DNA of 64,000 bases, from the NCBI GenBank assembly GCA_036267635.1, contig DATAVR010000139.1:211-64210 (forward strand), read 5' to 3'. Origin of the DNA: Polyangia bacterium. GTDB taxonomy: Bacteria; Myxococcota_A; Polyangia; Fen-1088. The notes under the pieces were generated by a model. The model saw only the letters and a program-made list of their open reading frames with translations, did not search any database and was not told the origin of the DNA. Below, in pieces: positions 2,750-52,227 of this stretch. Made by a program: the position numbers and the translations under genes. Numbering within the stretch: the first letter of the stretch is position 1; every line of letters begins with the position of its first letter.

Positions 2750-4750
2750 ATGTCGCTCAACACGGTCAGCATCCTGGACGGAAATTCCTTCGTGGTCAGC
2801 GATCGGCGCGGCGACATCGACGCCAGCCCCGTCGACACGCAAGGGCTGTTTCTCGACGACACACGCTTCCTCTCGCGCTGGATCCTGACCGTGAACGGCG
2901 TGCGTCCGTCGGTGCTGTCTGTCGACGAGCAGGAATACTTTCAGGTGCAGTTCTTCGAAGCGGTCACCACCAGCACCATCTACGTCGACTCTCACCTCTC
3001 GGTCGCCCGCAAGCGCGCGGTCGGCAAAGGGTTTCACGAGGAGATCTTGCTCGAAAACCACGACAAGGAGCCGATCGACCTCGACGTCAAGCTGGACGCG
3101 GCCTGCGACTTCGCCGATCTCTTCGAGGTGAAGGACAAGCTGCAGAAGAAGGGGCAGCTCTACACCAAGACGACGAACGATCGGCTGACGCTCGGCTACA
3201 AGCGCGAAGGCTTCATCCGCGAGACGTACATCACCGCCAGCCAGAAGGCCGACATTGCCGAAGATGGGCTGCACTTCCAGGTTCATTTGCCACCGCGAAC
3301 GTCGTGGACAGTCTCTCTCGACGTGCAGGCCTCCGCGCGCGCCACCGGCGACGAGCCGATGCGCAGCAAGGCGGGCGTCGACGCCTGGGTGAACGCCGCA
3401 CCCCGGCTGGTCTCTTCTTGGGAGCCGTTGCAGCGGATCTACCGCCGCAGCCTGGTGGACATGGCGGCGTTGCGGTTCCGAACGGGGCTCACCCCCGGCG
3501 CGCTGCCGGCGGCGGGGCTCCCCTGGTTCATGGCGGTGTTCGGCCGCGACAGCCTGATCGCCAGCTTTCAAGCCATCCCCTTCGCGCCGGAGCTGGCGGC
3601 GTCGACGCTGCGTACGCTGGCGCTGTTTCAGGGCCGGGTCGAAGATCCGTTCCGCGACGAAGAGCCGGGCAAGATCCTGCACGAGCTGCGTCTCGGTGAG
3701 ATGACCGCCTTCGAAGAGCGGCCACACTCGCCCTACTACGGCGCGGCCGACAGCACCATGTTGTTCCTCATCGTGCTCGAGGAGTACGTCCGCTGGACCG
3801 GCGATCGCGCCCTGGCGCAGGAGCTCGAGCGCGAGGCGCGCGCGGCGGTGAGCTGGATCGATCGCTACGGCGACCGCGACCACGACGGCTTCGTCGAGTA
3901 CAAGCGCGGCAACGATCAGACCGGCCTCGACAACCAGTGCTGGAAGGACTCCTGGGACTCGATCGCCTTCGCCGACGGCACGATCGCACCGCTGCCGCGC
4001 GCCACCTGCGAGCTGCAAGGCTACGTCTACGACGCCAAGCTCCGCACCGCCCGGCTGGCGCGTGAAGTATGGAACGATCCGACCTGGGCCACACAGCTCG
4101 AGACCCAAGCCCTCGAGCTCAAACAGCGGTTCAACCGCGAGTTCTGGCTTCCGGAGCGGAATTTCTTCGCGCTGGCGCTCGACGGCCAGAAGCGCAAGGT
4201 CGACTCGCTCACCTCGAACATCGGCCACCTGCTCTGGAGCGGCATCGCCGACGACGAAAAGGCCGCCAGCTGCGTCAAGCACCTGATGAGCGACGCGCTC
4301 TTCTCCGGCTGGGGCATCCGCACCATGGCCAGCAGCGAGGGTTCGTACAATCCGATCGGGTATCACGTCGGCACCGTCTGGCCGCACGACAACTCGTTCA
4401 TCGCCTGGGGCCTGCGCCAGTCCGGTTACCGCGCCGAGGCGGCCCGCATCTCGCGGGCCATGCTGGAGGCGGCGGATCTGTTCGGCGGCCGGCTCCCCGA
4501 GGCGTTCGGCGGCTATCCGCGATCGGACACTCACTATCCGGTCGAGTACCCGACCGCGTGCAGCCCCCAGGCCTGGGCGACCGGCGCGCCGCTGCTCCTC
4601 ATCCGCACGCTGCTCGGTCTCGAATCCGACGGCGTTCACTTGATCGTCGACCCGGCCATTCCGGAGCCACTCGGGCGAATCGAGCTGCTCGACATCCCCG
4701 GCTGCTGGGGGCGCATGGACGCCTTCGGCCGCGCGCGCGCCGCCGACTGA
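2750..4750 (+). CDS. Amylo-alpha-1,6-glucosidase / glycogen-debranching-like (GDE_N_bis + GDE_C) protein
   Basis: Starts MSLNTVSILDGNSFVVSD. Contains PWFMAVFGRDSL, EPGKILHELR, GLDNQCWKDSWDS, GYHVGTVWPHDN and SPQAWA motifs of the (alpha/alpha)6 debranching family. ATG 2750 is in frame with ORF 2027..4750. Confidence 0.85.
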   Translation: MSLNTVSILDGNSFVVSDRRGDIDASPVDTQGLFLDDTRFLSRWILTVNGVRPSVLSVDEQEYFQVQFFEAVTTSTIYVDSHLSVARKRAVGKGFHEEILLENHDKEPIDLDVKLDAACDFADLFEVKDKLQKKGQLYTKTTNDRLTLGYKREGFIRETYITASQKADIAEDGLHFQVHLPPRTSWTVSLDVQASARATGDEPMRSKAGVDAWVNAAPRLVSSWEPLQRIYRRSLVDMAALRFRTGLTPGALPAAGLPWFMAVFGRDSLIASFQAIPFAPELAASTLRTLALFQGRVEDPFRDEEPGKILHELRLGEMTAFEERPHSPYYGAADSTMLFLIVLEEYVRWTGDRALAQELEREARAAVSWIDRYGDRDHDGFVEYKRGNDQTGLDNQCWKDSWDSIAFADGTIAPLPRATCELQGYVYDAKLRTARLAREVWNDPTWATQLETQALELKQRFNREFWLPERNFFALALDGQKRKVDSLTSNIGHLLWSGIADDEKAASCVKHLMSDALFSGWGIRTMASSEGSYNPIGYHVGTVWPHDNSFIAWGLRQSGYRAEAARISRAMLEAADLFGGRLPEAFGGYPRSDTHYPVEYPTACSPQAWATGAPLLLIRTLLGLESDGVHLIVDPAIPEPLGRIELLDIPGCWGRMDAFGRARAAD

Positions 4751-4836
4751 ACGTCCGCCGGCTCTATTTGCGCCTCTGACTCACAGCCGGGGCCGGCGAC
4801 CGCGAAGCACGCCGTCGTTAACTTTGGACGGGAGGT

Positions 4837-5433
4837 GTGAAGATGAAGAACCAGGGGAATCGGATCGAGGCGGCGATCGCCTTCGCGGGCTGCCTACTCA
4901 CCATGGCGTTTTCGACCGGCGTCGCGCGGGCCGACTCGGTCGCGGGACCGGCGGCGGCGCGGCAAATTCACGAGACGGTGGTGGTGACCGCCATCGACCG
5001 CGCCACGCGCAGCGTGATGTTGGAGAACGCCGCCGGCGACACCCGGACGATCGGCGTCCCGCCCGACATGACGTCGTTCGACACGCTCAAGGTCGGCGAT
5101 CACGTCGACGTCGACTATTACGAGTCGATCGGCCTCGCGCTGATGCCGCCGGGAACGAGGTCGAGCATGACCGACAGCGCCACGGGGGGCCGCGCAGCGC
5201 CCGGGGTATTCGCCGCCGGCCGCGAGATCACCGCCAACGTCGCGGTGATCAGCGTCGACGAGGTCATGAACAGGGTGACCTTCAAGGGCCCGAAGGGGAA
5301 CGTCCGGACGGTGACCGTCTACGATCCGGCGATGCAGAAGCGTCTGGCCACCCTGCAGCCCGGCCAGATGGTGCAGATCACCTACCGCGAGGCGATGGCG
5401 GCGGCGATCAAGCCGACCGCGGCGGCGAAGTAG
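4837..5433 (+). CDS. Secreted hypothetical protein with two internal beta-domain repeats
   Basis: GGGAGG SD and a signal peptide ending ARA. Two similar about 60-aa segments: VVVTAIDRATRSVML...KVGDHVDVDYYES and VAVISVDEVMNRVTF...QPGQMVQITYREA. Confidence 0.65.
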   Translation: MKMKNQGNRIEAAIAFAGCLLTMAFSTGVARADSVAGPAAARQIHETVVVTAIDRATRSVMLENAAGDTRTIGVPPDMTSFDTLKVGDHVDVDYYESIGLALMPPGTRSSMTDSATGGRAAPGVFAAGREITANVAVISVDEVMNRVTFKGPKGNVRTVTVYDPAMQKRLATLQPGQMVQITYREAMAAAIKPTAAAK

Positions 5434-5610
5434 CCGGCCCAACATCGACAACCAGCAGTGACATTTTCGCGCGGGCCGGCGGCGATGAGCCCACCGCCAC
5501 CGCGCGGACGTTTGTCGTTCGCGGGACGACCCACCGATGAATCGGCGCGGTCAATTTACGAAGGATCACCGGGGGGCGAGGCGACCGCCGCGGACCAACA
5601 TTGAACGTCG

Positions 5611-6357
5611 ATGAAGTCGAAGCGCGCGCCTGGAATCGCGACCGGAGCGTTGCTTGCCACGCTGCTGGCGAGCGCTTGCGCCCACGAGATGGGCAAACGT
5701 TCGGTGGTGGGCGCGACCAACGAGGTGGAGGAGCACCAAGCGGCGACTGTCGACGACCCGAGCAAACAGATCAGCCGCGTCGCCGCCGAGCGCGCCATCG
5801 AAGGCGCCGTCGCCGCGCTCGACGCGCCCGAGCAGCGGGCCAGGATTCAACAGGTCGTCAACGCCGCCGTCACCGAGGCGGTGGCGAGCGCGCTCCGGAC
5901 CGCCACCGAGGTCCCGCGGGGCGAGAACGCAGGTGTCGCCGGCGAACGGGGGGTGAGCCCCGTAGCGCTGCTGATGGGTCAGGCCGCCCGATCGGCGGTG
6001 GCGGACGCCATCCATCAGGTGGTCGTCGATCTCGGCAACGGCGGCGAAGGGCCGCTCGCGGCCAGCATCGCCGGCACCGGCAAGAACGTTTCGGCGGCGG
6101 TCGTGAGGAGCGCCCTCGATCAGCTGACCGAGCTCTTCCCCGGATGTCGCGGCCCCGACGCGGTCGCCTGCATCAACCGCCAGATCTACGGCATGAGCCA
6201 GTCGGCCGCCGTCGGCTTCTCGACCGGCGTCCGCAAGACCATCGGCTGGCAGCTGCTCGTCGTCGCCGCGCTCGTCGGCTTGCTTTTGGGCCTCCTGGCC
6301 GCCTGGGTCTGGTCTCAACGCGGACAGGGTCACGTGTTGCGCACGCGGACGACCTGA
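5611..6357 (+). CDS. Lipoprotein with C-terminal transmembrane anchor (paralog of 17082..17789)
   Basis: Lipobox LLASAC, Ala-rich helical body, C-terminal TM segment WQLLVVAALVGLLLGLLAAWVW. Confidence 0.65.
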   Translation: MKSKRAPGIATGALLATLLASACAHEMGKRSVVGATNEVEEHQAATVDDPSKQISRVAAERAIEGAVAALDAPEQRARIQQVVNAAVTEAVASALRTATEVPRGENAGVAGERGVSPVALLMGQAARSAVADAIHQVVVDLGNGGEGPLAASIAGTGKNVSAAVVRSALDQLTELFPGCRGPDAVACINRQIYGMSQSAAVGFSTGVRKTIGWQLLVVAALVGLLLGLLAAWVWSQRGQGHVLRTRTT

Positions 6358-7520
6358 GGGGCCGCGCGCCTGCTGGCGCCGACGATCGACAGCGCCAACA
6401 CCGCCAGCAGCAAGGCGATGCCGGCGGCGCCACCAAAGAGCGGGCGCAGGCCGAGCCCCGCGTGGTCGCGGAGCGGACCGATCCCGAACGCGGCCAGGCC
6501 ATATCCAACCTGATAACAGGCGATGAGATGGCCGGCCGGCGCCTCCTGGCGGCCGAGGCTGATGGTGAGGGGGAGCAGCGCCGAACAGCCGAGGCCTGCC
6601 AGGGCGAAGGTCGCGGCGCCAAGGTAGGGCGCAGAGGACGGAACGAGCGCCGTGCCGACGAAGGCGAGCGCGATCACCCACGGCAGCAGGCGGAAGGTGC
6701 TGGGGCCGGAGAGCCAGCGATCTATCGAGGCGAAGAGCACCCGGCCCGCGGTGGCCGCCGCCCAGAACAGCGTGAGCGTGACCGCGGCGAGCCCGGCCGG
6801 CGCGCGCAACACCCCCTTCATATAGAGGATCGCCCAGTTTCCGTTGAGCGTCTCGACGACCCCATAACAGAGCGCGAACGCCGCGAAGAGCCAGAACCCT
6901 CGCGAGCGACCAGCCTGCGAGGGTGAGCCACCCTGCCCGACGTCGACCTCGTGGGCGGCGAGAGGGAGCGACAGGCTCCAGGCAATGAGGGCCGCCAGCA
7001 GCGCACCGACGGTGAGCGGCAGCCCCCACCAGATGCCGAGGCCGACGAAGAGAGCGACGAAGACCGGCGCCAGCGCGGTCCCCAGGCCGAGCAGCGCATT
7101 GAGCGCCAGCACCGCCACGTCGACCCGGCGCGGGAACAGCGATGCCGCCAGCACGTTGACCACCGGGATCGTCAGCCCGAAGCCGATCCCCATGAGCGCC
7201 GTGGCGGCCAGCAGAAATGCGAACGCCGCCGCGTGCGATCCCAGGACGAATCGGCTCGAGACGAGCAGCACCATCGACGCCAGATCGGCGGCGAGCCCGA
7301 GGAGGAGGACGCGCTTCGCTCCCCAGCGTCGGGCGAGTCGACCGCCGAGCAGCGCGGCGGTCACCGCCAGCACGGTCTGGGGCGCGAACATGACGCCGTA
7401 CTCGCCGTCGGAGAGTCCGTGCGCGTGCGGGTCGGTGAAGACGGCGCTGGCCGCGGGAAACGTGACCAGCGCCAGACCTTGCAGGAGGCCGGCCGCATAG
7501 ACTGCGCCGACCTGCTTCAC
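6330..7520 (-). CDS. MFS transporter
   Basis: 396 aa with about 12 hydrophobic segments and an MFS-like loop GGRLARRWGAKR. Last gene of the dehydrogenase-GMC-MFS string. Confidence 0.8.
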   Translation of the reverse strand: MKQVGAVYAAGLLQGLALVTFPAASAVFTDPHAHGLSDGEYGVMFAPQTVLAVTAALLGGRLARRWGAKRVLLLGLAADLASMVLLVSSRFVLGSHAAAFAFLLAATALMGIGFGLTIPVVNVLAASLFPRRVDVAVLALNALLGLGTALAPVFVALFVGLGIWWGLPLTVGALLAALIAWSLSLPLAAHEVDVGQGGSPSQAGRSRGFWLFAAFALCYGVVETLNGNWAILYMKGVLRAPAGLAAVTLTLFWAAATAGRVLFASIDRWLSGPSTFRLLPWVIALAFVGTALVPSSAPYLGAATFALAGLGCSALLPLTISLGRQEAPAGHLIACYQVGYGLAAFGIGPLRDHAGLGLRPLFGGAAGIALLLAVLALSIVGASRRAAPQVVRVRNT

Positions 7521-7527
7521 CCGCGCG

Positions 7528-9078
7528 TCACCGCAGCCGCTCGCGCAAGTGGTCGCCGACCCGCAGCGCGTTCGCCATCGCCGTCAGGCCGGGGTTCACC
7601 GCGCCGATGCTGGGAAAGAAGCTGGTGTCGACGACGTAAAGGTTGTCGAGCTCGTGCGCCTTGCAGTTGACGTCGAGGACCGAGCTCCGGGGATCGGTGC
7701 CGAAGCGGCAGGTCCCCGCCTGGTGGCCGACCGCGCCGACCTCCATGTCGTTCTTCAGATAGAGATCGCGGGGCAAGAGGTGGTCCGGGTGCATCCCGAG
7801 CTGGCCGAGCATCGACTTGAGCTGCGCGTAGAGCTTCTGGGCCGGCACCTCGTTGCTCTTGGTGTAGCTGAGGCGGATGCTGCCGTCTTTCTCCAGCGTG
7901 ACGCGGTTTTCGGGGCGGGGCAGATCCTCGGTCGACAGCCAAAAATCGACGGCGTGGTTGGCCATCTCCTCGAGCGACCACATCGGCGCCAGCTTGGCGA
8001 TCTTCTTTTCCCCCCGAAACATCGGTGCCTGCGACTTGCCGAGCATCTGAATGTTGCCGAGAGGATAGTCGGCGCCGGGCCCGCTGAAGTAGAAGTCGTT
8101 GAGCCCGAGCGTCTTCTGGTAGCGGGTGGGGTTCGGTTCCTTGGAGACGGCGAGCACCGCCGAGCTGTTGTGGAACATGTAGTTGCGCCCCACCTGGTCC
8201 GAGCCGTTGGCCAGACCGCGCGGATGTTTGTCGTTGGCCGACGCCAGCAAGAGACGGGCAGAGTTGGCCGCGCCACAGGAGACGACGACGATCCCGGCCC
8301 GGTAGGTTTCGGTCCCGCCGTCCTGCTCGACGACCACCTCGGTGACGGCGGTGCCGGCCGCGTTGGTCCGCAGTTGCATGGCGCGCGCGTTCGTCATCAG
8401 CGTGACGTTGGGAAATGTCACCGCCGGGCGGACCGCGATCGTCTCGGCGTCGGACTTGGCGTGCACCAGACAGGGAAACCCATCGCAGTCCATGCAGCGA
8501 ATGCAGGTGGAGAACGGGGGCTTGCGCTCGTCGAGCAGGATGCCGCAGGGGGAGTGAAAAGGCTGATAGCCGGCGCGCACCAGATCGTCGTGAAGCTGCT
8601 GGATGCGCGGCTCGTGCGAGACGGCCGGGTGGGGATAAGGACCGCTGGCCGGTGGATCGAACGGATCCTCGCCGCGAGCACCGTGGACCTGATAGAGGTT
8701 CTCGGCCCGCAGGTAATACGGCTCCATCTCGGCGTAGGAGATCGGCCAGGCGGGAGAAAGACCGTCCTGGTGCCGGAGCTCCCCGAAGTCGCGCTCGCGC
8801 AGCCGATAGAGCGCGGCGCCGTACATCTTGGTCGCGCCGCCCACGAAGTAGTGAATTCCGGGCTGGAACGGCTTGCCCTCCTTGTCGAGCCAGGTCTCTT
8901 TCGAGACGTAGCGGTTCTCGACGAACACGTCGACGGAGCTCCAGTTCTGCTTCTCGCGCGGCAGCCACCCGCCGCGTTCGAGCAGGAGAATGTTCTTTCC
9001 GAACGGCGCCAGCTCCAGCGCCAGCGTGCCGCCCCCGGCCCCGGAGCCGATGATGATCAGGTCATAGTACTCAGACAC
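7528..9078 (-). CDS. GMC family FAD-dependent oxidoreductase
   Basis: N-terminal YDLIIIGSGAGGGTLA Rossmann motif. C-terminal HQAGTCRFG...LYVVDTSFFPSIGAVNP GMC signature. Confidence 0.9.
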   Translation of the reverse strand: MSEYYDLIIIGSGAGGGTLALELAPFGKNILLLERGGWLPREKQNWSSVDVFVENRYVSKETWLDKEGKPFQPGIHYFVGGATKMYGAALYRLRERDFGELRHQDGLSPAWPISYAEMEPYYLRAENLYQVHGARGEDPFDPPASGPYPHPAVSHEPRIQQLHDDLVRAGYQPFHSPCGILLDERKPPFSTCIRCMDCDGFPCLVHAKSDAETIAVRPAVTFPNVTLMTNARAMQLRTNAAGTAVTEVVVEQDGGTETYRAGIVVVSCGAANSARLLLASANDKHPRGLANGSDQVGRNYMFHNSSAVLAVSKEPNPTRYQKTLGLNDFYFSGPGADYPLGNIQMLGKSQAPMFRGEKKIAKLAPMWSLEEMANHAVDFWLSTEDLPRPENRVTLEKDGSIRLSYTKSNEVPAQKLYAQLKSMLGQLGMHPDHLLPRDLYLKNDMEVGAVGHQAGTCRFGTDPRSSVLDVNCKAHELDNLYVVDTSFFPSIGAVNPGLTAMANALRVGDHLRERLR

Positions 9079-10240
9079 GGGCCCCTCCCTTCGCCGACGC
9101 TGCTGCGGCTTTGGCTCCCGCCGCGACGCCGATCGGGGTCCCGAAGCGGATCACGTTCTTGATGCCGCCGTGGTCCGGCGACAGGACGTCGGTGATCTGT
9201 TCGGGCGGAAAGTGCCCCGTGATGAGCTCCCGCACCGGCCCCGGCCAGCGCGCGTTGAACTTCCCCAGATCGCGGATCGACGCCTCGAACGCGGGCGGTC
9301 CGGCGTTGACCGTCCCGTAAAGGAGCTGATTCGCCAGCACCAGATTGCGCATGATTCGCTCGGCGTCGAGGCTGACGGGCGTCTTGTGGCCCGGAACGCC
9401 CGTGAAGATGAAGACGCCGTTCTTGCCGATCGCGGGGAGGGCGGCGAAGGCCAGGGCCGCCGAGCCGGTCGCCTCATAGATGAGATCGACGTTCTTGATC
9501 TGCTTGCCGAGGTCGCCGACAGGAAGCTTGCCGGACTCGATGTAGCGAGCCCCGATCTTTTCGACCCAGGCAGCGCGCGGGCTGCTGGCGCTCTCGCGCG
9601 AATAGATCCAGGTGTCGAAGCCCCGCACGAGGAGCGCGAGCGCGCCGAGGAGGCCGACCGGCCCGGCGCCGAGCACCACGGCGTTCAGCCCCCGCTTCTC
9701 CTCCCTGGCCGGGTTGACCCAGGGCATGCGAACCAGGACGGACTCGAGCTCGATGAGCGCCTTCTCCGCGATGGTGAGCGGCTCCGTGAGGACCGCGATG
9801 TCGGCGATCTCCCGCGGCACGACGTGCATGTTGTCCGCCAGATCGACCACCTCGTCCGTCATGAAGCCGTGCCGGCGCATGATGCCGCGCTCAGTGTAAG
9901 CGCCGGTCACGCAGAAGTCCGGCCGGTTGTGGTGGCAGGGGCGGCACTCGGGATCGCCGCAGGGGCGGCGCACCGTCGTGACCACCAGATCGCCGGGCTT
10001 GAGGTTCGACACCGCGCTGCCGACCTCGACCACCTCGCCGAGTGACTCGTGGCCCATCACCAGGTACGGCTCGCCGGGAGGCGGGGAACCGTACTCGAAG
10101 CGCGCGATCTCGTGGTCAGTCCCGCAGACGCCGACCTCCAGCATGCGGACCCGCGCCTGCGCGTCCCCCTCGAGTTGGGGGGAAGGGCGATCGACCAGCC
10201 GAATCTTCTTCTCGGTCGGGAACATGGCAATTGCACGCAT
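9071..10240 (-). CDS. Zn-dependent medium-chain dehydrogenase (glucose-dehydrogenase-like)
   Basis: Motifs VGVCGTDHE and GHESLGEVVEVG (Zn site) and VLGAGPVGLL (NAD). ATG 10240 with GAGG upstream. 8-nt overlap with the downstream GMC gene. Confidence 0.85.
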   Translation of the reverse strand: MRAIAMFPTEKKIRLVDRPSPQLEGDAQARVRMLEVGVCGTDHEIARFEYGSPPPGEPYLVMGHESLGEVVEVGSAVSNLKPGDLVVTTVRRPCGDPECRPCHHNRPDFCVTGAYTERGIMRRHGFMTDEVVDLADNMHVVPREIADIAVLTEPLTIAEKALIELESVLVRMPWVNPAREEKRGLNAVVLGAGPVGLLGALALLVRGFDTWIYSRESASSPRAAWVEKIGARYIESGKLPVGDLGKQIKNVDLIYEATGSAALAFAALPAIGKNGVFIFTGVPGHKTPVSLDAERIMRNLVLANQLLYGTVNAGPPAFEASIRDLGKFNARWPGPVRELITGHFPPEQITDVLSPDHGGIKNVIRFGTPIGVAAGAKAAAASAKGGARV

Positions 10241-10296: not shown

Positions 10297-12312
10297 TCAG
10301 GCGGGATGAGGCTTGAGACTTCGCCCGGCGACGACCGGGCCTGCCACCCGCTCTTCGCGCTTGTGAAAGGTCGTCTCCTCGTGCGCCGCCAGCGCCACCA
10401 AAAAGCGCCCGTCGACGAGCGCCGGGACCCGCTGGATCGCCTCGCCGAGAGACTCGAGTCCCGCGAAGAACGGCAGATCGTTCGCCTGCAGGTTGCGCTT
10501 GAGCCAATCGAAGGGATCGCGCGCCTCGATCCAGTCCATCTCCTTCTTGTCGGCGAACAGCGCCTGCACCGGATCGGAGGTGGCGCTCACCGTCCGGACC
10601 GGATGGCCGTGGGCGAAGCGGGGAGCGAGCTGCGCCGCGAGCTCGAGGCTCTGTCGCCCGGGGCGCACCAGGTTGTTCGGGTGGGCAATGATGAGGACCC
10701 GTTCGAAGTGAGCGACGTCGCCGTGGGCGATGAGCGTCGGCACGGGCGACCGCGCCAGCGCTTCGGACTGCTCACTGTCCGGCTGGATCCGGTCGCGGGC
10801 GTGCCATTCGTTGATGAGCAGGGTGGCCTTTTCACCAAGGATCGTCTCCAGCAGACCTTCGGGGACCGTCTCGGCGACGCGAAACAGCGTGCGCGATTCG
10901 AGCCCTTCCTTGGCCAGCCACCCCTCGGCCTCGGTCGTCAGGCCGCGCTGCGCCGCCTGCTCAGCCGGGGACGATTCCGTCCTCGCGAAGCTCGCCGCCA
11001 GGACGATGCCCCCGTCGCTCGTCGCCAGCTTCCCCGCCAGGTCGAGCGCAGGTCGGGTCGAATCGCCCCAGATCGGAACCAGGACGATCTTTCCGAGCGT
11101 CGCCGCCTCCTCGGTCACGGCGGTCACCCGCTTGCCGAAGTGGCTCACCAGCGCCGGCGTCACCACCAGCGACGCCAGGATGACGACCAACACCGCGTTG
11201 ATCGTCTGCTTGTCGAACAGGCCCAGCTTCGCGCCGACCAGCGTGGTCGCCAGCGTCGCCGCCGCTTGCGAGCCGGAGAGACCGGACATGACGCCGATCT
11301 CCGGCCAGGTGAAGTGGAAGGTCCGCCCGGCGATGATTGCGGCCAAGGCCTTGCCGCCGAGGACGGCCACCGTGAAGATGAGGGCGAGCCCCAGCGTCTT
11401 CGGATCGACCATCACCTTGGGCTCGAGGAGGATGCCGACCGAGACCAGGAAGATGGGGATGAAGAGCGTCGAGCCTATGAACTGCAACCGGTCCATGAGC
11501 GGGCTCTCCTCGGGGACGGCGCGGTTGAGCCCGAGGCCGGCGAAGAAAGCGCCCACGATGCCGTCGATCCCGGCGGCCTCCGCCATCACCGCGCCGACCA
11601 GAAACGCCGCGATGCCGAAGATGAAGCGGTACGAGCGATCGGTCCCCACGTGGGCGAAGAACCAGCGCGCCACGCGGGGTAAGGCGACCAACGACCAGAC
11701 GCCCAGCACCGCGAGCCCGACGGCGATCCCCAGCAGCTGCAGGCTCAAGGCGCCGCCCGGTTTGACCGTCCCCGAGATCACCGACAGCACGAGCAGCGCC
11801 GAGGTGTCGGTGACCGCGGTGGCCCCCACGACCGTCGCCACCGCGCGGTTGCGCGCCAGGCCCATCTGCCGGAGCAGCGGATAGGTGACCAGCGTGTGCG
11901 AGCCCCAGTTCGACCCCATCAGCACCGCCGCCGCCCAGTGGTAATGGAGCAGCCGCGCGCTGACGATCCCCAGCGTGAACGGGATGGCGAACGACAGCAG
12001 CGCGAAGGTGACGGCGGCCCGCTTCATCTTCATGAACAGCTTGAGGTCGAGCTCCAACCCGGCGCTGAACATCAGATAGAGCAGGCCGAACTCGCCGATC
12101 GACGACAGCGCGATCTCCTTCGAGGCGAGGGCGCGCGTGCCGTGCGGCCCCAGCGCCATTCCCGCCAGGACCAGCCCGACCATCGCGGGCAGCCGAAGAG
12201 CTTCCGCGATCTTGGGCGCCAGGATCAACGCCAGAATGAGGATCGCGTAGGCGAGGGTCGGCCCGGACGTGATCCGATGCAGGATGTCTCCGAGAACGTC
12301 GAGCGGGTGCAT
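10297..12312 (-). CDS. Cation:proton antiporter (CPA2-type) with large C-terminal cytoplasmic (USP-like) region
   Basis: N-terminal about 400 aa are polytopic (LPAMVGLVLAGMALGP, FSAGLELD). The C-terminal about 270 aa are soluble. Start placed at ATG 12312 (MHPLDVLGDI). Confidence 0.85.
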   Translation of the reverse strand: MHPLDVLGDILHRITSGPTLAYAILILALILAPKIAEALRLPAMVGLVLAGMALGPHGTRALASKEIALSSIGEFGLLYLMFSAGLELDLKLFMKMKRAAVTFALLSFAIPFTLGIVSARLLHYHWAAAVLMGSNWGSHTLVTYPLLRQMGLARNRAVATVVGATAVTDTSALLVLSVISGTVKPGGALSLQLLGIAVGLAVLGVWSLVALPRVARWFFAHVGTDRSYRFIFGIAAFLVGAVMAEAAGIDGIVGAFFAGLGLNRAVPEESPLMDRLQFIGSTLFIPIFLVSVGILLEPKVMVDPKTLGLALIFTVAVLGGKALAAIIAGRTFHFTWPEIGVMSGLSGSQAAATLATTLVGAKLGLFDKQTINAVLVVILASLVVTPALVSHFGKRVTAVTEEAATLGKIVLVPIWGDSTRPALDLAGKLATSDGGIVLAASFARTESSPAEQAAQRGLTTEAEGWLAKEGLESRTLFRVAETVPEGLLETILGEKATLLINEWHARDRIQPDSEQSEALARSPVPTLIAHGDVAHFERVLIIAHPNNLVRPGRQSLELAAQLAPRFAHGHPVRTVSATSDPVQALFADKKEMDWIEARDPFDWLKRNLQANDLPFFAGLESLGEAIQRVPALVDGRFLVALAAHEETTFHKREERVAGPVVAGRSLKPHPA

Positions 12313-12514
12313 GGCGGATCTCCGAGGCGCTGGGGTTGGCGACCTGGAGTTTGAGACTGGCCCGCCGATCCGCCATTCGAGCGATCGCAAATCAGTCTTC
12401 GCCGCACCTGCCGTGAGCGCGTCGATCTACGCCCCGGCCGCAATTGCCACCCGTCGATCGCTGGCCATGTTGCAGGCCGAGGGCCGCGGCGACGTGGTCA
12501 GGGGAGAGACTTCC

Positions 12515-13942
12515 ATGCAAGCAGGCGCGGCCGACGTTTTACTGGGAGCGAGCAACTTGCTCGCGGCGCGAAGCCAGATGGCCTTCACGCTGGGGTTCCA
12601 CATCCTGCTGGTCCCGTTCGGCGTCTGCCTGCCGCTCTTCACGCTGATCGCCAACGCCTACGGCCTGCGCCACGACGACCAGGCGGCGCTGCGGCTGGCG
12701 CGCCGCTGGTCGTACGCGATGGGCGTGACCTTCGCTGTCGGCGCGGTGACCGGCACCGTGCTCTCGTTCGAGCTCGGGATCCTCTGGCCCGGCCTGCTCG
12801 GCCGCTTCGGCGACGTCTTCGGGCTCCCCTTCGCCATCGAGGGGCTCGCCTTCTTTCTCGAGGCGATCTTCGTCGCCATCTACATCTTCGGTTGGAATCG
12901 CCTCACCCCGCGCCTGCACCTCTGGCTGGGCGCTCCCTTGCCGTTCTTCGCGGCGCTGGGCGCCTTTTCCGTCATCGCCGCCAACTCGTGGATGAACACG
13001 CCGCGTGGCTTCCAGGTCGACGCCTCCGGAAGGCCGTTCGCCATCGATCCCTGGGCCGCCATCTTCAACCCGGCGTTGCCGCACGAGCTGGCTCACTTTC
13101 TGCTCGCCGCGTTGCTCTGCGCCGGCTTCGTGCTGGCTTCGATCTACGCGGTCGGAATGCTGAAGGGGCGCCGCGATCGCCTGCACCGGCTCGGATTCAT
13201 CATCCCTTTTACCGTCGCCGCCATCGCCACGCCGATGCAGATGATGGTGGGTGACCGCGCGGTCCGCGAGGTGGTGAAGCTGCAACCGGTGAAGTTCGCC
13301 GCGATGGAGCTGCTCGCCGAGACGGCCACCCATGTCCCCGAGCGCCTCGGCGGGCACATGAAGGACGGCGTTCCGACCGGTGGCCTGAAAGTGCCGGACA
13401 TGGCCTCGTTCCTGACCGGCTTTCACGCCGACACCAAGATCGTCGGCCTCGCCGCCGTCGGCCCGGGCGATCGCCCGCCCGCGACCATCGTCCACTGGGC
13501 GTTCGACCTGATGATCTTCTCCGCCAGCGGGCTGGCGCTGCTCTCGGTCTGGTTCCTCTTCGTCTGGTGGCGGCGGCGCGATCTCCCGGTCACGCCCTGG
13601 TTTCTCCGCGCCTGTGCCGGCGCGGGCGCGCTGTCGCTGGTAGCGATGGAGGCTGGCTGGATCACCACCGAGGTGGGGCGTCAGCCCTGGGTGGTCTACG
13701 GCTTCCTGCACACCGCCCAGGCGGTCACCCACGCCCGCGGGATCTGGGGATCGTTCGCCATCGTGGTCGGGATCTACGCGGCGGTCGGCATCGGCCTCCT
13801 GCTCGTCTTGCGCGCCATGTCCCGCCGCTGGCGCTCAGGCGAAGGCGACGCGCTCCCCGGGCCGTATGCCCCGCGCGGTCCCATCATCGTTCCGGCGGCC
13901 TCGCCCGCGGCGGCGGCGGCGGCCGCAGGGAGGACGGCATGA
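12515..13942 (+). CDS. cydA: Cytochrome bd ubiquinol oxidase subunit I
   Basis: Motifs ARSQMAFTLGFHILLVPFG, NSWMNTP and GWITTEVGRQPWVV are hallmark CydA motifs. Start ATG 12515 after GGGGAG (alternative ATG 12467). Confidence 0.9.
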   Translation: MQAGAADVLLGASNLLAARSQMAFTLGFHILLVPFGVCLPLFTLIANAYGLRHDDQAALRLARRWSYAMGVTFAVGAVTGTVLSFELGILWPGLLGRFGDVFGLPFAIEGLAFFLEAIFVAIYIFGWNRLTPRLHLWLGAPLPFFAALGAFSVIAANSWMNTPRGFQVDASGRPFAIDPWAAIFNPALPHELAHFLLAALLCAGFVLASIYAVGMLKGRRDRLHRLGFIIPFTVAAIATPMQMMVGDRAVREVVKLQPVKFAAMELLAETATHVPERLGGHMKDGVPTGGLKVPDMASFLTGFHADTKIVGLAAVGPGDRPPATIVHWAFDLMIFSASGLALLSVWFLFVWWRRRDLPVTPWFLRACAGAGALSLVAMEAGWITTEVGRQPWVVYGFLHTAQAVTHARGIWGSFAIVVGIYAAVGIGLLLVLRAMSRRWRSGEGDALPGPYAPRGPIIVPAASPAAAAAAAGRTA

Positions 13943-16251
13943 GCACCGTGGTCGCCTTGATCCTCTGGTTCGCCGTCACCTGCTACGCGATCTTCGGCGG
14001 CGCCGACTATGGTGCCGGCTTCTGGGATCTGACCGCCGGCGGCGCGCGCCGCGGGGCCCGGGCGCGGGCGCTCATCGATCACGCGATGGCGCCGGTCTGG
14101 GAGGCCAACAACGTCTGGCTGATCTTCGCGCTGGTGGTGCTCTGGACGGCCTTCCCACGGGCGTTCGCCGCGATCACGTCGACGCTGTATCTGCCGCTGG
14201 CTCTGGCGGCCGCCGGCATCGTGCTGCGCGGGTCGGGGTTCGTGTTCCGCGACGCGACGCGGGCACTGACCGGACGCCGCCTGTTCGGAGCCGTCTTCGC
14301 GCTGTCGTCGGTGGTGACCCCCTTCTTCCTGGGCGCCAGCTTCGGCGCGATCGCCTCGGGGCGCGTGCGGGCCGGCGACCTGGCGGAGGATGCGACCTCG
14401 CGCTGGCTCGGACCGACGTCGATCCTGGTCGGCGTCCTCGCCGTCGCCAGCGCGGCTTTTCTGGCGGCGGTTTTTCTGGTCTTCGACGCCGGGCGGGTCG
14501 ACGAGACGCTCGACCGTCACTTCCGGTGGCGAGCCATCGGCAGCGGCGTGGCGACCGGGCTCATCGCCATCGCGGGGCTGTTCGTGGTTCGCGGCGACGC
14601 GCCGTTTCTGTTTCACGGGTTGGTGCACGAAGGGCTCCCCTTCGTGCTGCTCTCCGGGGCCTGCGGCGGCGCGGTCGTGGTCCTGCTCGCCCAGGACATC
14701 ACCCGGGGCACACGGGCGCTGGCGGTCATCGCGGTGGTGACCATGCTCGCCGGGTGGGGCGTCGCGCAGCACCCGTACTTGCTGCCGACCTCGCTGACGT
14801 TCGAGGCGGCCGCCGGCGCGCCGCGCTCGCTCGGCTGGCTGGTCGTCGTGTTCCTCATCGCCTGCGTCACCGCCGTGCCGGCGCTGGCGCTGCTGTTCGT
14901 TCTCGACCAGCGCAGCAAGCTGCAGCACGGTTCGGTTGTCGCGGGGGAGCATCCCGAGAGCCGCCACCGGGTGGTTGTCGTGGGCGGCGGCTTCGGCGGG
15001 CTGTTCGCGACCCGCGCGCTCGGCTGGTCGCCGGTCGACGTCACGCTCGTCGATCGCGAGCCTCATCATCTGTTCCAGCCGCTGCTCTACCAGGTCGCGA
15101 CCGGGATCCTCTCCGAGGGGGAGATCGCGCCTTCGCTCCGGCACATCCTGCGTTTTCAAGAGAACGCCGCCGTGCTGCTGGCCGAGGTGACCGGCTTCGA
15201 TCTCGAGCGCCACGAGGTGCAGGCCCGCCGTCCCGACGGCGCGTCGATCACCCTCCCCTACGACAGCTTGGTCGTATCGGCGGGTGCCGGCATGTCCTAC
15301 TTCGGCCACGACGAGCTGGCCGAGCACGCGCCGGGGATGAAGACGCTCGACGACGCTCTCCGCCTGCGGCGGCGCCTGCTGCAAGCGCTGGAGATGGCCG
15401 AGCTCAGCGAAGATCCCCGGAAGCAACAGGGATGGTTGACGGTGGCGATCGTCGGTGCCGGCCCGACCGGCGTCGAGATCGCCGGCCAGGTCCGGGCGCT
15501 CGCGGTGCGCAGCCTCGGCACCAGCTTCCGGCGAATCGATCCCACGCTGGTCCGCGTGGTGCTGCTCGACGCCGGCCATGAGCCGTTGAGTCAGTTCGGC
15601 GATCACCTGTCGGAGATCGCCGCGCGCGAGCTCGGCACCCTGGGCGTCGAGCTGCGGATGGGCGTCAAGGTCACGGCGGTCGACGCCGAGTCGGTCGTGC
15701 TCGAGGGCGCGAACGGCCCGGAGCGGATCGAGGCGCGGACCGTCATCTGGGCGGCGGGCGTGCAGGCCTCGCCGCTGGCGCGCCTGCTCGCCGAGGCGTC
15801 CGGGGCGGCCTGCGATCGCGCCGGCCGGATCGAGACCCGCCCCGACTGCACCCTGCCAAAGCATCCCGAGGTCTTCGCCATCGGTGACATGGCCAGCCTC
15901 GATCGGCTGCCGGGCGTGGCCGAGGTCGCCATGCAGGAGGGGCTGCACGCCGCGCGGGCCATCCGTCAAAGGGTGGCCGGCAAGCCGGCGACGACCGCCT
16001 TCCGATACCGAGACCTCGGGAGCATGGCGTCCGTCGGGCGCTTTCGCGCGGTGGTCAGCCTCAAAGGGCTGCGGGTGGGGGGCCTCCTCGGCTGGCTGAC
16101 CTGGGCGGTCGTTCACCTCACCTTCCTGACCGGCTTCGCCAACCGCTTCGCCACGATGTTCCACTGGACCCGCACCTTCCTCGGCCGCAACCGGAGTCAG
16201 ATCGCCTTCAGCGCGCGCTTCACGCGGACGCGGCCGTCCAATCCACGCTGA
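13939..16251 (+). CDS. Fusion protein: cytochrome bd oxidase subunit II (CydB) + type II NADH:quinone oxidoreductase (NDH-2)
   Basis: ATG 13939 overlaps the cydA stop (ATGA). Residues 1 to about 330 are CydB-like (YAIFGGADYGAGFWD, WEANNVWLIF). Residues from about 344 are NDH-2 (VVVVGGGFGG, HLFQPLLYQV, VAIVGAGPTGVE, IGDMA). There is no stop codon between the halves. Confidence 0.85.
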   Translation: MSTVVALILWFAVTCYAIFGGADYGAGFWDLTAGGARRGARARALIDHAMAPVWEANNVWLIFALVVLWTAFPRAFAAITSTLYLPLALAAAGIVLRGSGFVFRDATRALTGRRLFGAVFALSSVVTPFFLGASFGAIASGRVRAGDLAEDATSRWLGPTSILVGVLAVASAAFLAAVFLVFDAGRVDETLDRHFRWRAIGSGVATGLIAIAGLFVVRGDAPFLFHGLVHEGLPFVLLSGACGGAVVVLLAQDITRGTRALAVIAVVTMLAGWGVAQHPYLLPTSLTFEAAAGAPRSLGWLVVVFLIACVTAVPALALLFVLDQRSKLQHGSVVAGEHPESRHRVVVVGGGFGGLFATRALGWSPVDVTLVDREPHHLFQPLLYQVATGILSEGEIAPSLRHILRFQENAAVLLAEVTGFDLERHEVQARRPDGASITLPYDSLVVSAGAGMSYFGHDELAEHAPGMKTLDDALRLRRRLLQALEMAELSEDPRKQQGWLTVAIVGAGPTGVEIAGQVRALAVRSLGTSFRRIDPTLVRVVLLDAGHEPLSQFGDHLSEIAARELGTLGVELRMGVKVTAVDAESVVLEGANGPERIEARTVIWAAGVQASPLARLLAEASGAACDRAGRIETRPDCTLPKHPEVFAIGDMASLDRLPGVAEVAMQEGLHAARAIRQRVAGKPATTAFRYRDLGSMASVGRFRAVVSLKGLRVGGLLGWLTWAVVHLTFLTGFANRFATMFHWTRTFLGRNRSQIAFSARFTRTRPSNPR

Positions 16252-16278: not shown

Positions 16279-16653
16279 ATGTTGCGACGGATTGTCGAGC
16301 TGACGGCCTTGCTGTTCGAGGCCGGAGGGACCTTCGCGATGTCGATCGGCGCCCTCGTCGCGCTGGGCCTGGCGCTGCGGGACAGGGCCGGCGGGGCGCG
16401 AATGGTCTTCCGCGGCTTCCGGAACCGGCTGGGGCGCGCGATCATCCTCGGCCTCGAGCTGCTGGTCGCCGCCGACATCCTGCGCACGATCAGCACCGAG
16501 CCGACCTTGCAGCAGGTGCTGGTGCTCGGCGTCGTGGTCCTCATCCGGACCTTCTTGAGCTTCTCGCTGGAGATCGAGCTCGAGGGGCGCTGGCCCTGGC
16601 AGGGCGGCCGCCGCGAAGAGCCTGTCGCCCCTCAGCAGACCGAGGCGCGATGA
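16279..16653 (+). CDS. DUF1622 family membrane protein
   Basis: The motif GLELLVAADILRTI and the about 120-aa size match my recollection of DUF1622. Confidence 0.7.
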   Translation: MLRRIVELTALLFEAGGTFAMSIGALVALGLALRDRAGGARMVFRGFRNRLGRAIILGLELLVAADILRTISTEPTLQQVLVLGVVVLIRTFLSFSLEIELEGRWPWQGGRREEPVAPQQTEAR

Positions 16654-17057
16654 GCGACGCCGCGAGGCCGTCGACGTCGGACCGCCTCGCTCACGAGAGG
16701 ACCGACCTGGCCGGCAACCGCACCATGATGGCGGCGGATCGCACCCTGATGGCCTGGATCCGGACCGCGCTGTCGATGATCAGCTTCGGGTTCACCATCT
16801 ACAAGTTCCTGCACGCTTTCGCGGAGTCGGGGGCGATCCATCTTCGCCGTCCCAACGCCCCGCGCGATCTTGGTCTCTTCCTGACGGTGCTGGGGACGGG
16901 ATCGTTGGTGGCCGGCCTCATTCAGTACGTGCAGATGCTGCGGCAGATCCACCTCTCAGTGCTGCGAACGAGCGTCACCTTCTATGTGGCCTGCGCGGTG
17001 ATCGTCTTGGGGCTGGCGGTGCTGCTCGGAATCGTGGCCAAGGCCGGACCCTTCTGA
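16650..17057 (+). CDS. DUF202 (YidH-like) membrane protein
   Basis: The LAHERTDLAGNRT...DRTLMAWIRTAL pattern plus 3 TM segments. ATGA overlap with the preceding gene. Confidence 0.75.
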   Translation: MSDAARPSTSDRLAHERTDLAGNRTMMAADRTLMAWIRTALSMISFGFTIYKFLHAFAESGAIHLRRPNAPRDLGLFLTVLGTGSLVAGLIQYVQMLRQIHLSVLRTSVTFYVACAVIVLGLAVLLGIVAKAGPF

Positions 17058-50473: not shown

Positions 50474-50535
50474 TCGACCGACCTCGTTCGTAACCGCACG
50501 GCGGCAGACCGCAGGGTCTGCCGCCGCTCTTCATT

Positions 50536-52227
50536 GTGATTCATTCGTCACTATCGACACCTGCCGTTCGGAAATATGTTGGGCGCTTGATTCGCCGCCG
50601 GAAATTCCTGGCTCTCGCTGCGGCCTCGGTCCCGGCCTGGGCTTGCCGCCGGAGCGTGCTCGCCCCGGCGCCGCCCACCGAACGGCCGCCGGCGGCTCCG
50701 CCCGCCGGGACCGGCGAGGGCCCGCCGCTCCACCCCGACGCGCTCGCGCGCTTCGTCGACCCGCTGCCGATCCCCCGCACGCTGGCGCCGCAAGGAACCC
50801 GCCCCGACCCGCGCGATCCGACCAAGCAGGTCGCCTTTTACAAAGTCGCCATGGCCGAGGTGCTCGCCAAGATCCACCGCGACGTCCCCGCCACCCGCTT
50901 CTGGGGTTATGCCGGCAGCTTCCCCGGCCCGACCATCGAAGCCCGCGGCAGCCAGGGCGTCCTCATCGAGTGGGTGAACCAGCTGCCCACCCGTCACTTC
51001 CTTCCCATCGACCACACCCTCTGCGGCGCCGGCAAGGATCGCCCGGACGTCCGCGCCGTCACCCACGTGCACGGCGCGAAGGCGCCTCCGGAGAGCGACG
51101 GCTATCCCGAAAACTGGACGACGCCCGGACAGTCCTCGCTGTTTCACTACCCGAACCAGCAGGAGGCGGCGACGCTCTGGTACCACGACCACGCGATGGG
51201 AATCGAGCGCCTCAATCAGTACGCCGGCCTCCTCGGCGTCTACCTGATCCGCGACGCGGCAGAAGAGACGCTCGACCTGCCGCGCGCCCCTTACGAGCTG
51301 CCGCTGGTGCTCTGCGACCGGCTGTTCGGGCAGGACGGCCAGCTTCGATACTCGACCTCCGGCGCACCTGACGCCCCCTGGATCCCCGAGATCTACTGCG
51401 ACGCCCACCTGGTGAACGGGAAGTTGTTCCCGTACCTGGACGTCGAGCCGCGCCGCTACCGATTTCGCGTGGTCAACGCCTCGAACTCGCGGTTTTACGA
51501 CCTGTCGTTTTCGAACGGCGGCGCTTTCCATCAGATCGGAACCGACCAGGGCCTCCTGCCGGCGCCCGTTCCGCTCACCGCGCTGACGTTGGCGCCGGCC
51601 GAGCGCGCCGACCTGCTGGTCGATTTCAGCGCCGGCGCCGGTCAAAAGATCCTGCTCGAGAGCCAGGCGTTCGAGCTCATGCAGTTCCGCGTCGCCGCCG
51701 GCCCCCGGGCACGACCGACGCCGCTGCCGCGGAAGTTGCGCCCGGTCCGGAAGATCGCCGAGTCGGCGGCGGTTGTCACCCGAACCCTGAAGCTGAATGA
51801 GTACCACGACCCTCAGGCCCACCGGATGCTCATGCTCCTCGACGGCAAGCACTGGCACGACCCCGTGAGCGAGAAGCCCGAGCTCGACAGCGTCGAGATC
51901 TGGCAGCTCATGAACCTGACCGAGGACAGCCACCCCATCCATCTGCACCTGGTGCGCTTCCAGATCCTCAACCGCCAGCTGTTCGACGCCGACGAGTACC
52001 GGACTTCCGGAAAGCTGGAGCTGGTGCGCGCGCCGATGCCGCCGGCGCTCAATGAGGCGGGGTGGAAGGACACCGTCCGCGTCGATCCCGGAACGATTAC
52101 CCGAATCATCGTGAAGTTCGAGGGTTACACCGGCCGCTACGTCTGGCACTGCCACCTGCTGGAGCACGCCGCCAACGAGATGATGCGCCCCTTCGAGGTG
52201 GTCGCCCGGCCGACCTCAGCGGGATGA
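50536..52227 (+). CDS. Multicopper oxidase (CotA / bilirubin-oxidase-like), Tat signal
   Basis: RRRKFLALAAA twin-arginine region. Copper motifs HVHG, WYHDH, HPIHLHL and HCHLLEHAANEMM. Start uncertain (GTG 50536 or TTG 50587). Confidence 0.9.
   Translation: MIHSSLSTPAVRKYVGRLIRRRKFLALAAASVPAWACRRSVLAPAPPTERPPAAPPAGTGEGPPLHPDALARFVDPLPIPRTLAPQGTRPDPRDPTKQVAFYKVAMAEVLAKIHRDVPATRFWGYAGSFPGPTIEARGSQGVLIEWVNQLPTRHFLPIDHTLCGAGKDRPDVRAVTHVHGAKAPPESDGYPENWTTPGQSSLFHYPNQQEAATLWYHDHAMGIERLNQYAGLLGVYLIRDAAEETLDLPRAPYELPLVLCDRLFGQDGQLRYSTSGAPDAPWIPEIYCDAHLVNGKLFPYLDVEPRRYRFRVVNASNSRFYDLSFSNGGAFHQIGTDQGLLPAPVPLTALTLAPAERADLLVDFSAGAGQKILLESQAFELMQFRVAAGPRARPTPLPRKLRPVRKIAESAAVVTRTLKLNEYHDPQAHRMLMLLDGKHWHDPVSEKPELDSVEIWQLMNLTEDSHPIHLHLVRFQILNRQLFDADEYRTSGKLELVRAPMPPALNEAGWKDTVRVDPGTITRIIVKFEGYTGRYVWHCHLLEHAANEMMRPFEVVARPTSAG

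Follow-up and report, generated by a model that had tools for sequence, protein, structure and literature searches.

A cytochrome bd subunit fused to a type II NADH dehydrogenase in a Polyangia bacterium: evidence for the fusion and its putative role as a tethered NADH-to-O2 module

The 64,000-nucleotide (nt) stretch of DNA analyzed here (the window) comes from a soil bacterium labeled Polyangia (contig DATAVR010000139.1) and contains a pair of genes, cydA-cydB::ndh, in which a single polypeptide joins a cytochrome bd subunit to an NADH dehydrogenase of type II (NDH-2). The fusion gene, cydB::ndh, lies at 13939..16251 on the plus strand (770 codons plus TGA) and was identified from its open reading frame (ORF), Pfam matches, and an identical protein in JGI and NCBI; cydA (12512..13942, plus strand) encodes cytochrome bd subunit I of the predicted qOR-2 type. 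The fusion is genuine and is under purifying selection. The reading we favor, at a probability of roughly 0.7, is that the two genes would encode a two-polypeptide NADH-to-menaquinone-to-O2 module in which NDH-2 is tethered 1:1 to a qOR-2 cytochrome bd.

The fusion gene and its family

The cydB::ndh ORF runs from ATG 13939 to TGA 16249-16251 (plus strand) through 770 codons with zero internal stops, and its ATG shares the sequence ATGA with the cydA stop (13939-13942, a 4-nt overlap); a first-pass annotation of the window had read both features in the same way. An overlapping cydA precedes the fusion in all six loci examined (the window, L081, L082, L086, L089, and the P0134 contig), with the 4-nt overlap also in L081, L082, L086, and L089, and in alignments the homologues start at an equivalent MSTVVA... 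sequence. The length of the ORF is no evidence in itself, because the window is 68.6% G+C, an antisense ORF of 796 amino acids (aa) covers the same stretch, and the sense frame stays open upstream to GTG 13567. The reality of the fusion rests on homology: both halves have full-length family matches, and the frame is kept in >115 clusters.

These clusters came from a search of 5.8 billion cluster representatives, with matches from NCBI, JGI, ENA, and Logan assemblies. The CydB-NDH-2 architecture, with both Pfam domains on one polypeptide, was present in >115 clusters at 90% identity (52-100% identity; about 765-816 aa), in addition to the Chloroflexota family described below. Alignments of 15 and of 55 fusion members are collinear across the junction, and the latter (alignment A2) is the source of the statements on invariance made here. 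The same annotation had worried that a lost stop or frameshift, in assembly or sequencing, joined two separate genes. In related operons both genes do overlap by 4 nt, where one wrong base could fuse them, but we consider such an artifact extremely improbable: the identical 770-aa protein is encoded on contigs of three separately assembled JGI metagenomes and by an NCBI metagenome-assembled genome (MAG), and the >115 clusters read in frame through the junction, with the architecture kept down to 52% identity.

One family member departs from this pattern. P0157 (448 aa) matches aa 1-294 of the fusion with 68% identity, and its remainder is a tail rich in Ala, Pro, and Arg, of the sort that out-of-frame reading typically gives. 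A frameshift or misassembly in a member of clade 1 is the probable cause.

The oxidase, the dehydrogenase, and the tether

The cydA product matches Pfam Cyt_bd_oxida_I (E 7e-120). Where the gene starts is uncertain: an open frame extends from GTG 12269, and JGI calls a product of 543 aa, but homologues have lengths of 462-480 aa, and the resemblance to AppC sets in near the Met at 12512. The best PDB match is 9r2g_A, the AppC subunit of Mycobacterium smegmatis (E 1e-121), followed by the Geobacillus enzyme (qOR-3; 3e-71) and by qOR-1 structures (1e-32 to 1e-41). CydA keeps the ligands of heme d (H30 and E110), heme b558 (H195 and M334), and heme b595 (E387, also W383), and its gating Phe is F114. 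Two further features mark the subfamily. Six residues, rather than seven, separate the conserved proton-channel Glu residues (E110-GLAFFL-E117), a qOR-2 trait common to qOR-3 and qOR-4a (Murali et al. 2021), and M23 aligns with M. smegmatis M26, the Met that in qOR-2 enzymes replaces the qOR-1 Phe beside heme b595 (PMC12994193). As judged from its sequence, the oxidase is a member of the menaquinol-type qOR-2 subfamily. In the Q-loop, Glu266 is kept (the equivalent of M. smegmatis AppC Glu268). We also noticed that Asp248 (about nt 13253-13255) stands in the place of Q-loop His250 of M. smegmatis AppC, a proposed menaquinol contact.

The first-pass annotation took the N-terminal half of the fusion to be a complete CydB, and Pfam, PDB sequence, and fold matches agree. 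The CydB/AppB domain (aa 1-329; 13939..14925, plus strand) matches Cyt_bd_oxida_II (PF02322) over aa 1-321 (E 8e-58; 196.6 bits, the cut-off being 35.6; positions 1-300 of the 302 in the profile). It is 49% identical to 9r2g_D, M. smegmatis AppB (E 3e-82); the Geobacillus bd oxidase comes next (4e-15), and the Escherichia coli and Mycobacterium tuberculosis enzymes match more weakly. An AlphaFold2 (AF2) model built from 55 sequences, with a mean predicted local distance difference test score (pLDDT) of 77 and a predicted TM score (pTM) of 0.55, superimposes in this half on 9r2g_D with a TM score of 0.92 and a root mean square deviation of 1.9 Å over 324 columns (Foldseek). The model places nine transmembrane (TM) helices within aa 2-329, the last of which (h9) spans aa 295-329. 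Lys and Arg residues number 10 on the predicted cytoplasmic loops versus 3 on the periplasmic loops. Because of the nine predicted helices and this charge bias, NDH-2 is placed in the cytoplasm, the compartment in which such an enzyme has to lie, which agrees with the earlier proposal that the CydB C terminus is cytoplasmic and the topology compatible with the fusion. Residue E55 (motif PVWEAN) is invariant in A2 and by hand count aligns with M. smegmatis AppB E57; it may be the counterpart of the E. coli CydB proton-pathway residue D58.

The first qOR-2 member to be characterized, M. smegmatis bd-II, actively oxidizes menaquinol and has nine helices per subunit and no small subunits (Kovalova et al., PNAS 2026, PMC12994193). 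The window enzyme shares with it (9r2g) the nine TM helices, the heme ligands, the Met near b595, the gating Phe, and the six-residue Glu spacing; likewise, no small-subunit gene is seen adjoining the window operon. The two differ beyond helix 9: AppB has a free cytoplasmic tail of ∼45 residues, whereas here the tail runs into a 427-residue NDH-2. In addition, M. smegmatis appCB is described beside cydAB, and ndh is not mentioned as a neighbor.

The C-terminal half (aa 344-770; 14968..16248, plus strand) is a complete NDH-2 with its membrane anchor, again as first annotated and with agreement among Pfam (PF07992, PF00070, and PF22366), PDB sequence, and fold matches. Pyr_redox_2 covers fusion aa 344-668 (E 9e-48), and NDH2_C covers aa 693-750 (31.7 bits; curated cut-off 27.7). 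The best PDB match is M. smegmatis NDH-2 (9mqy; E 3e-129), with ∼50% identity over the full length; the AF2 model matches 9mqy_A with a TM score of 0.87 over 426 columns and the Staphylococcus aureus and C. thermarum NDH-2 structures with TM scores of 0.84 to 0.86. Two GxGxxG dinucleotide-binding motifs are a criterion for NDH-2 (Marreiros et al. 2017), and the domain has both. The first (FAD) motif, GGGFGG (aa 349-354; 14983..15000, plus strand), is invariant in A2, and the longer VVVVGGGFGG had been located exactly, at 14971-15000. The second (NADH) motif and its Glu, GAGPTGVE (aa 506-513; 15454..15477, plus strand), has GAGPTG (aa 506-511) and E513 invariant in A2; the first-pass annotation recognized this motif as VAIVGAGPTGVE and misplaced it by one base (the position is 15442-15477, not 15441-15476). 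We matched E513 to S. aureus E172 by motif position (two residues past the second GxGxxG), not by alignment; E172 has a described role and is present in 97% of NDH-2s (PMC5299459). The G-D pair that is strictly conserved in NDH-2s (S. aureus G301-D302) is G649-D650 here and is invariant in A2, and an acidic residue, D544, follows the second Rossmann strand.

M. smegmatis NDH-2 is a peripheral-membrane NADH:menaquinone oxidoreductase that is active solely as a dimer and whose menaquinone-site residues include Gln331 and Tyr400 (bioRxiv 10.1101/2025.01.08.631920). The fused domain shares with that protein (MSMEG_3621; 9mqy/9mqz) the two Rossmann domains and two long membrane-anchoring helices. 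The latter lie at aa 715-747 (16081..16179, plus strand; AF2 helices 715-730 and 733-747, within the NDH2_C match), and G715, W719, W722, H726, F729, T731, F733, R736, and W743 are nearly invariant in A2. The domains differ in three respects. The M. smegmatis protein is free-standing, whereas this one is tethered to CydB. The mycobacterial C-terminal dimerization helix (residues 430-457) is only partly matched, the fusion tail (aa 750-770) being short and predicted with low confidence. Finally, Gln331 and Tyr400 align with E662 and F729, which are conserved in the fusion family. E662 belongs to the quinone-site motif AEVAMQ (aa 661-666; 15919..15936, plus strand), in which the first Gln of AQxAxQ is Glu and the remaining three fixed residues are unchanged.

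Where that first Gln stands, NDH-2s vary: it may be Q, P (in many proteobacterial-type enzymes), or E (in 34 standalone genes of the same subclade). The E-type signature, PGVAEVAMQ...H..F.TGF, marks a whole standalone NDH-2 subclade in Actinomycetota. We considered E662 and F729 as a fusion-specific adaptation and rejected the idea: 33 standalone genes encode the same two residues, and the fusions of Chloroflexota have a Q-type NDH-2. Scanning species-representative (GTDB) genomes with patterns in the NDH-2 half yielded at least 80 loci (L002-L043 and others), which carry standalone or cyd-adjacent NDH-2 genes. Among the matches listed, cydA or cydB lay within 6 kb of 14 of the 34 E-type NDH-2 loci versus none of the 45 loci of other types (Q, P, or T) (Fisher 1e-6, uncorrected for phylogeny). 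The E-type arrangements include adjoining cydA-cydB-ndh (L002, and L008 with a TGATG overlap), ndh-cydA-cydB (L038), and ndh-cydA (L005); L002, L005, and L008, which had been candidates for full-length fusions, proved on inspection to have separate genes.

Between the halves, the junction and linker (aa 325-343, RSKLQHGSVVAGEHPESRH; 14911..14967, plus strand) were delimited by low pLDDT, by alignment, and by the tail motif of unfused CydBs. The linker proper, QHGSVVAGEHPESRH, occupies aa 329-343 (nt 14923-14967), close to the position of about 14905-14970 first given for it. The tether is ∼15 to 20 residues long, with a poorly conserved sequence and a near-constant length across the fusion family (52-100% identity). 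It is made up of a native CydB C-terminal tail (LDQRS+L..G) followed by a native NDH-2 N-terminal leader (..RHRVV): the LDQRS.L..G tail occurs in unfused qOR-2 CydBs, and RHRVV is a native NDH-2 start, as in L008. In the AF2 model pLDDT is <50 for linker aa 325-338, with the NDH-2 fold predicted beyond. No PDB chain found with Foldseek spans both halves.

Recurrence of the fusion and its unfused relatives

The fusion is found in more than one family. Searching 1.84 billion 50%-identity representatives with phmmer, we found one full-length CydB-NDH-2 representative in the best 150 matches, P0134. It belongs to a separate, Chloroflexota-labeled family of at least 17 full-length clusters with an overlapping cydA upstream; its NDH-2 half is of the canonical Q-type (PGVAQVALQ), and each of 30 bootstraps placed it outside the E-type clade. 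The main fused clade is labeled Polyangia and Actinomycetota (Acidimicrobiia); all taxonomic labels are those of the depositors, and Polyangia is taken from the name of the NCBI MAG. In a CydB tree, the main fused clade had a bootstrap value of 79 of 100. The fused sequence P0115 grouped at 99 of 100 with unfused P0200 and P0205, the latter from a plain cydAB operon with no ndh nearby, and a single clade of all fused sequences was recovered in 0 of 100. Because of this placement of P0115 and the distinct, Q-type NDH-2 of the Chloroflexota family, we conclude that, barring fissions, the fusion had at least two and probably three separate origins (the main clade, P0115, and the Chloroflexota family). 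Two other lines of evidence were discarded: the deep branches of the NDH-2 tree are too short to discriminate between single and multiple origins, and the common LDQ+..L..G linker motif does not argue for a single origin, being the native tail of unfused qOR-2 CydBs.

Chloroflexota also have the unfused state. Loci L090 and L091 carry separate cydA, cydB, and ndh genes with 4-nt overlaps; compared with the respective halves of fused P0134, the L090 cydB has 82% identity and the L090 ndh 77%. The unfused cydB ends ...LDQQSRLEANALEIHT* and the unfused ndh begins MSQNGSHAITRRAPHVVIVGGGFGG, while the fused P0134 junction reads ...LDQQSRLEGNPLEVSMSQNGSLANAGSLPHVVIVGGGFGG and contains the old NDH-2 N terminus, MSQNGS..., including its start Met. 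Because the junction matches these unfused ends, the fused Chloroflexota linker consists of the old CydB tail and the old NDH-2 leader. The comparison shows the fusion to derive from a translationally coupled cydA-cydB-ndh operon through loss of the stop/start overlap. L090 and L091, as well as L008 in Actinomycetota, have the gene order and stop/start overlaps of this kind of operon but make three polypeptides, not two; in L002, ndh follows cydB after a gap of ∼110 nt. The bd oxidases of L002 and L008 are of a more distant type, with CydBs 26 to 28% identical to that of the window.

NDH-2 has been joined to other membrane domains as well. Additional NDH-2s of about 680 to 830 aa have an N-terminal polytopic domain of about 200 to 380 aa, most commonly DoxX (P0161, P0165, P0171, P0179, P0189, P0193, P0208, P0215, P0229, and P0257), but also Na_Ca_ex (P0191), FTR1 (P0243), or a domain lacking a Pfam match (P0178, P0209, P0213, P0219, and P0226). 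We examined NDH-2 proteins of 680 to 840 aa as possible divergent CydB fusions and rejected them, the N terminus being DoxX, Na_Ca_ex, FTR1, or unidentified. Like the CydB fusion, the DoxX, Na_Ca_ex, and FTR1 proteins have a polytopic membrane domain N-terminal to a complete NDH-2; unlike it, their partner is not a respiratory oxidase subunit, and most carry a P-type NDH-2 (PGLAPAAKQ). For these architectures we found no published description or characterization. Another protein, P0304 (627 aa, on a 2,361-nt JGI contig), combines Pfam matches to Cyt_bd_oxida_I (CydA) with matches to both NDH-2 domains, for which a different fusion (ndh::cydA), a frameshift, and an artifact of gene calling are all possible explanations.

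Proposed function, alternatives, and genomic context

We propose that CydA would supply the quinol site together with hemes b558, b595, and d, and that the second polypeptide would supply its nine-helix CydB/AppB partner; from the cytoplasmic end of CydB helix 9, a flexible tether would lead into a complete flavin-dependent NDH-2 with its own anchoring helices. NADH would reduce the FAD of the NDH-2 domain at the cytoplasmic face, FADH2 would pass electrons to menaquinone at the membrane interface, and the menaquinol would move a few nanometers to the Q-loop site of the attached CydA, from which electrons would flow from b558 to b595 to heme d and reduce O2 to water. The fusion would thereby fix a 1:1 stoichiometry, coassembly, and nanometer proximity of quinone reductase and quinol oxidase, and may permit local quinone channeling between NDH-2 and CydA. 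Use of lipid-phase quinone is favored because the NDH-2 anchoring helices and the CydA b558 and Q-loop residues are retained. If the dimer requirement of M. smegmatis NDH-2 applies here, a dimer of CydA-fusion heterodimers would be its corollary. The outcome would be a compact NADH:O2 chain with low coupling, of a kind that suits redox balancing and the scavenging of O2. Neither NDH-2 nor cytochrome bd pumps protons, and the gradient comes solely from the scalar chemistry of bd; E. coli and Azotobacter use the pair to turn over NADH with low coupling. The branch made up of NDH-2 and cytochrome bd that is discussed in the Klebsiella aerogenes and M. tuberculosis literature places the same two enzymes in series via membrane quinone; in these organisms with branched chains, however, the enzymes are separate and communicate by the general quinone pool, while here they would form one assembly of fixed stoichiometry.

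Several points weigh against this tethered module. For every member, we infer the mechanism from homology. The orientation of the two halves is predicted without confidence (pTM 0.55; linker pLDDT <50), and our trees are neighbor-joining trees on small samples, that of NDH-2 lacking resolution at depth. Because Chloroflexota have both fused and unfused versions, about 80% identical to each other, the covalent link is dispensable for function, and any advantage that it gives is hypothetical. The menaquinone-site residues differ from those of M. smegmatis (Gln331 to E662 and Tyr400 to F729), a change also seen in standalone relatives. Finally, M. smegmatis NDH-2 works only as a dimer (bioRxiv 10.1101/2025.01.08.631920), a respect in which the tethered domain may differ.

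The coexistence of both states bears on an alternative in which the fusion is nearly neutral: overlapping cydB and ndh genes would have joined by a small indel, giving a product that behaves like the unfused pair without kinetic or assembly gain. A small change at the ATGA overlap suffices to fuse the genes, fused and unfused states occur at 77-82% identity within one phylum, and the linker, which is predicted to be disordered, shows poor conservation. We nevertheless think this account unlikely, given that at least two and probably three fusions became fixed independently, that the two larger families then diversified (>115 main-family clusters and at least 17 in Chloroflexota), that linker length is constant within a few residues over 52-100% identity, and that we noticed a single apparently frameshifted or broken member (P0157). 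The unfused operons also count against a quite different idea, one that we hold to be quite unlikely: NDH-2 would dock on the cytoplasmic face of CydB and reduce a CydB-bound menaquinone (the equivalent of the MQ3 site), sending electrons straight to heme d. Bypassing Q-loop and quinone pool, the complex would then be a pool-independent, largely nonelectrogenic NADH oxidase. In its favor, AppB helices 1, 2, and 9 and AppC helix 4 enclose the buried MQ3 headgroup of M. smegmatis bd-II on the cytoplasmic side, 7.3 Å edge to edge from heme d (PMC12994193), and it is to helix 9 that NDH-2 is fused. By hand-mapping onto the M. smegmatis alignment, the pocket is kept or conservatively replaced (M. 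smegmatis V61, W62, Y65, V68, I69, V306, V307, and A310 correspond to V59, W60, F63, V66, V67, V304, F305, and A308), with W60 invariant and F63 nearly invariant in A2. The authors of the M. smegmatis bd-II study, however, hold MQ1-3 to be structural, not catalytic (PMC12994193); moreover, the retained CydA b558 ligands and Q-loop Glu266 suggest a normal quinol site in use, and nearly invariant NDH-2 anchoring helices are expected if quinone is drawn from the bilayer. If direct transfer did take place, it would make the complex a self-contained membrane NADH oxidase with lower energy coupling and give "structural" CydB quinones a catalytic role.

A changed role for the NDH-2-like domain, as a reductase of some other acceptor or as an NADH-responsive regulator of the oxidase, seems to us very unlikely. 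Its quinone-site residues do differ from those of the mycobacterial enzyme (E662 for Gln331 and F729 for Tyr400), and NDH-2-like folds with other acceptors (FSP1 and sulfide:quinone reductases) were among the weaker matches. Yet along its full length the domain shares ∼50% identity with M. smegmatis NDH-2, and its FAD, NADH, and proton-relay motifs and its anchor are all present; the E/F variant is common to 33 standalone genes that resemble ordinary ndh, the quinone-site position varies across NDH-2s (Q, P, or E), and the Chloroflexota fusions carry a canonical Q-type domain.

For the neighboring genes we relied on gene calls and Pfam matches in L083, which corresponds to window positions 3939-26251 at 99.98% identity (offset +3938). 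On the minus strand lie genes for a GMC-family oxidoreductase (7528-9078), a zinc alcohol dehydrogenase (Zn-ADH)/glucose-dehydrogenase-like protein (9071-10240), and a Na+/H+ exchanger family protein (10297..12312), the last divergent from cydA. The exchanger gene recurs divergent to cydA in clade 1; in L089 it lies at 4428-6470 and has a weak Usp domain match. The GMC and Zn-ADH/glucose-dehydrogenase-like (Glu_dehyd_C type) pair is near the operon in the window, L081, and L089, and a GMC oxidoreductase adjoins it in L082. Neighbors of the same kinds, GMC and glucose-6-phosphate dehydrogenase (G6PD), adjoin the unfused Chloroflexota operon (L090), and G6PD adjoins P0134. Sugar or alcohol dehydrogenase genes therefore recur beside the operon in all three lineages, which suggests a sugar-oxidation-to-O2 gene cluster; as an association only, this fits a module that reoxidizes NAD(P)H from sugar oxidation. 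The dehydrogenase neighborhoods span 6330-10240 in the window (minus strand), 2446-6369 in L081, 1719-4389 in L089, 4184-6554 in L082, and 7988-11111 in L090, and a major facilitator superfamily (MFS) transporter gene often accompanies the GMC and sugar dehydrogenase genes beside the cydA-cydB(::)ndh operon.

Downstream of the fusion, gene calls on the plus strand place two small membrane-protein genes: DUF1622 (16279-16653), which begins after 28 nt, and DUF202 (16650-17057), which overlaps DUF1622 by 4 nt. They may be cotranscribed with the oxidase genes; DUF202 is also near the operon in L081 and L089. Among ten large ORFs scanned at nt 31733-61897, there was no second ndh or cydB, no cydDC, and no housekeeping marker. 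That end of the window includes, at 52895-55582 (plus strand), a gene for an 895-aa thiol-disulfide oxidoreductase of unusually repetitive build, its DsbA/Thioredoxin_4 domain being present four times in tandem, with a multicopper oxidase gene (50494-52227) directly upstream.

The first-pass annotation knew of no characterized example of the fusion. This stands for the literature: we found no description in full-text literature (subscription-only papers aside), nor in the papers on the bd superfamily, bd-II, and mycobacterial NDH-2. The architecture does already carry a database name, however: in JGI, Chloroflexota members are called [quoted passage not shown] Each component enzyme is familiar in its own right, and database names already cover some fused members; new here are the qOR-2 type of the oxidase, the recurrence of the fusion, and the unfused overlapping-gene precursor.

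Whether bacterial respiration uses a free-mixing quinone pool or local organized patches is debated and hard to test. The fusion family is a natural 1:1 construct for which unfused relatives (about 80% identical, in the same operon) can serve as controls and for which both parent structures are solved at high resolution. It makes testable quinone channeling, the role of CydB-bound quinones, the oligomeric state of NDH-2, and the way in which NDH-2 pairs physiologically with bd oxidases, themselves drug targets in mycobacteria; as a two-gene NADH:O2 module it also has a possible use in redox-balance engineering. Because fusions have arisen repeatedly and independently and the genes are linked in operons, the family provides "Rosetta stone" evidence that NDH-2 and qOR-2 cytochrome bd may associate physically even when they are separately encoded.

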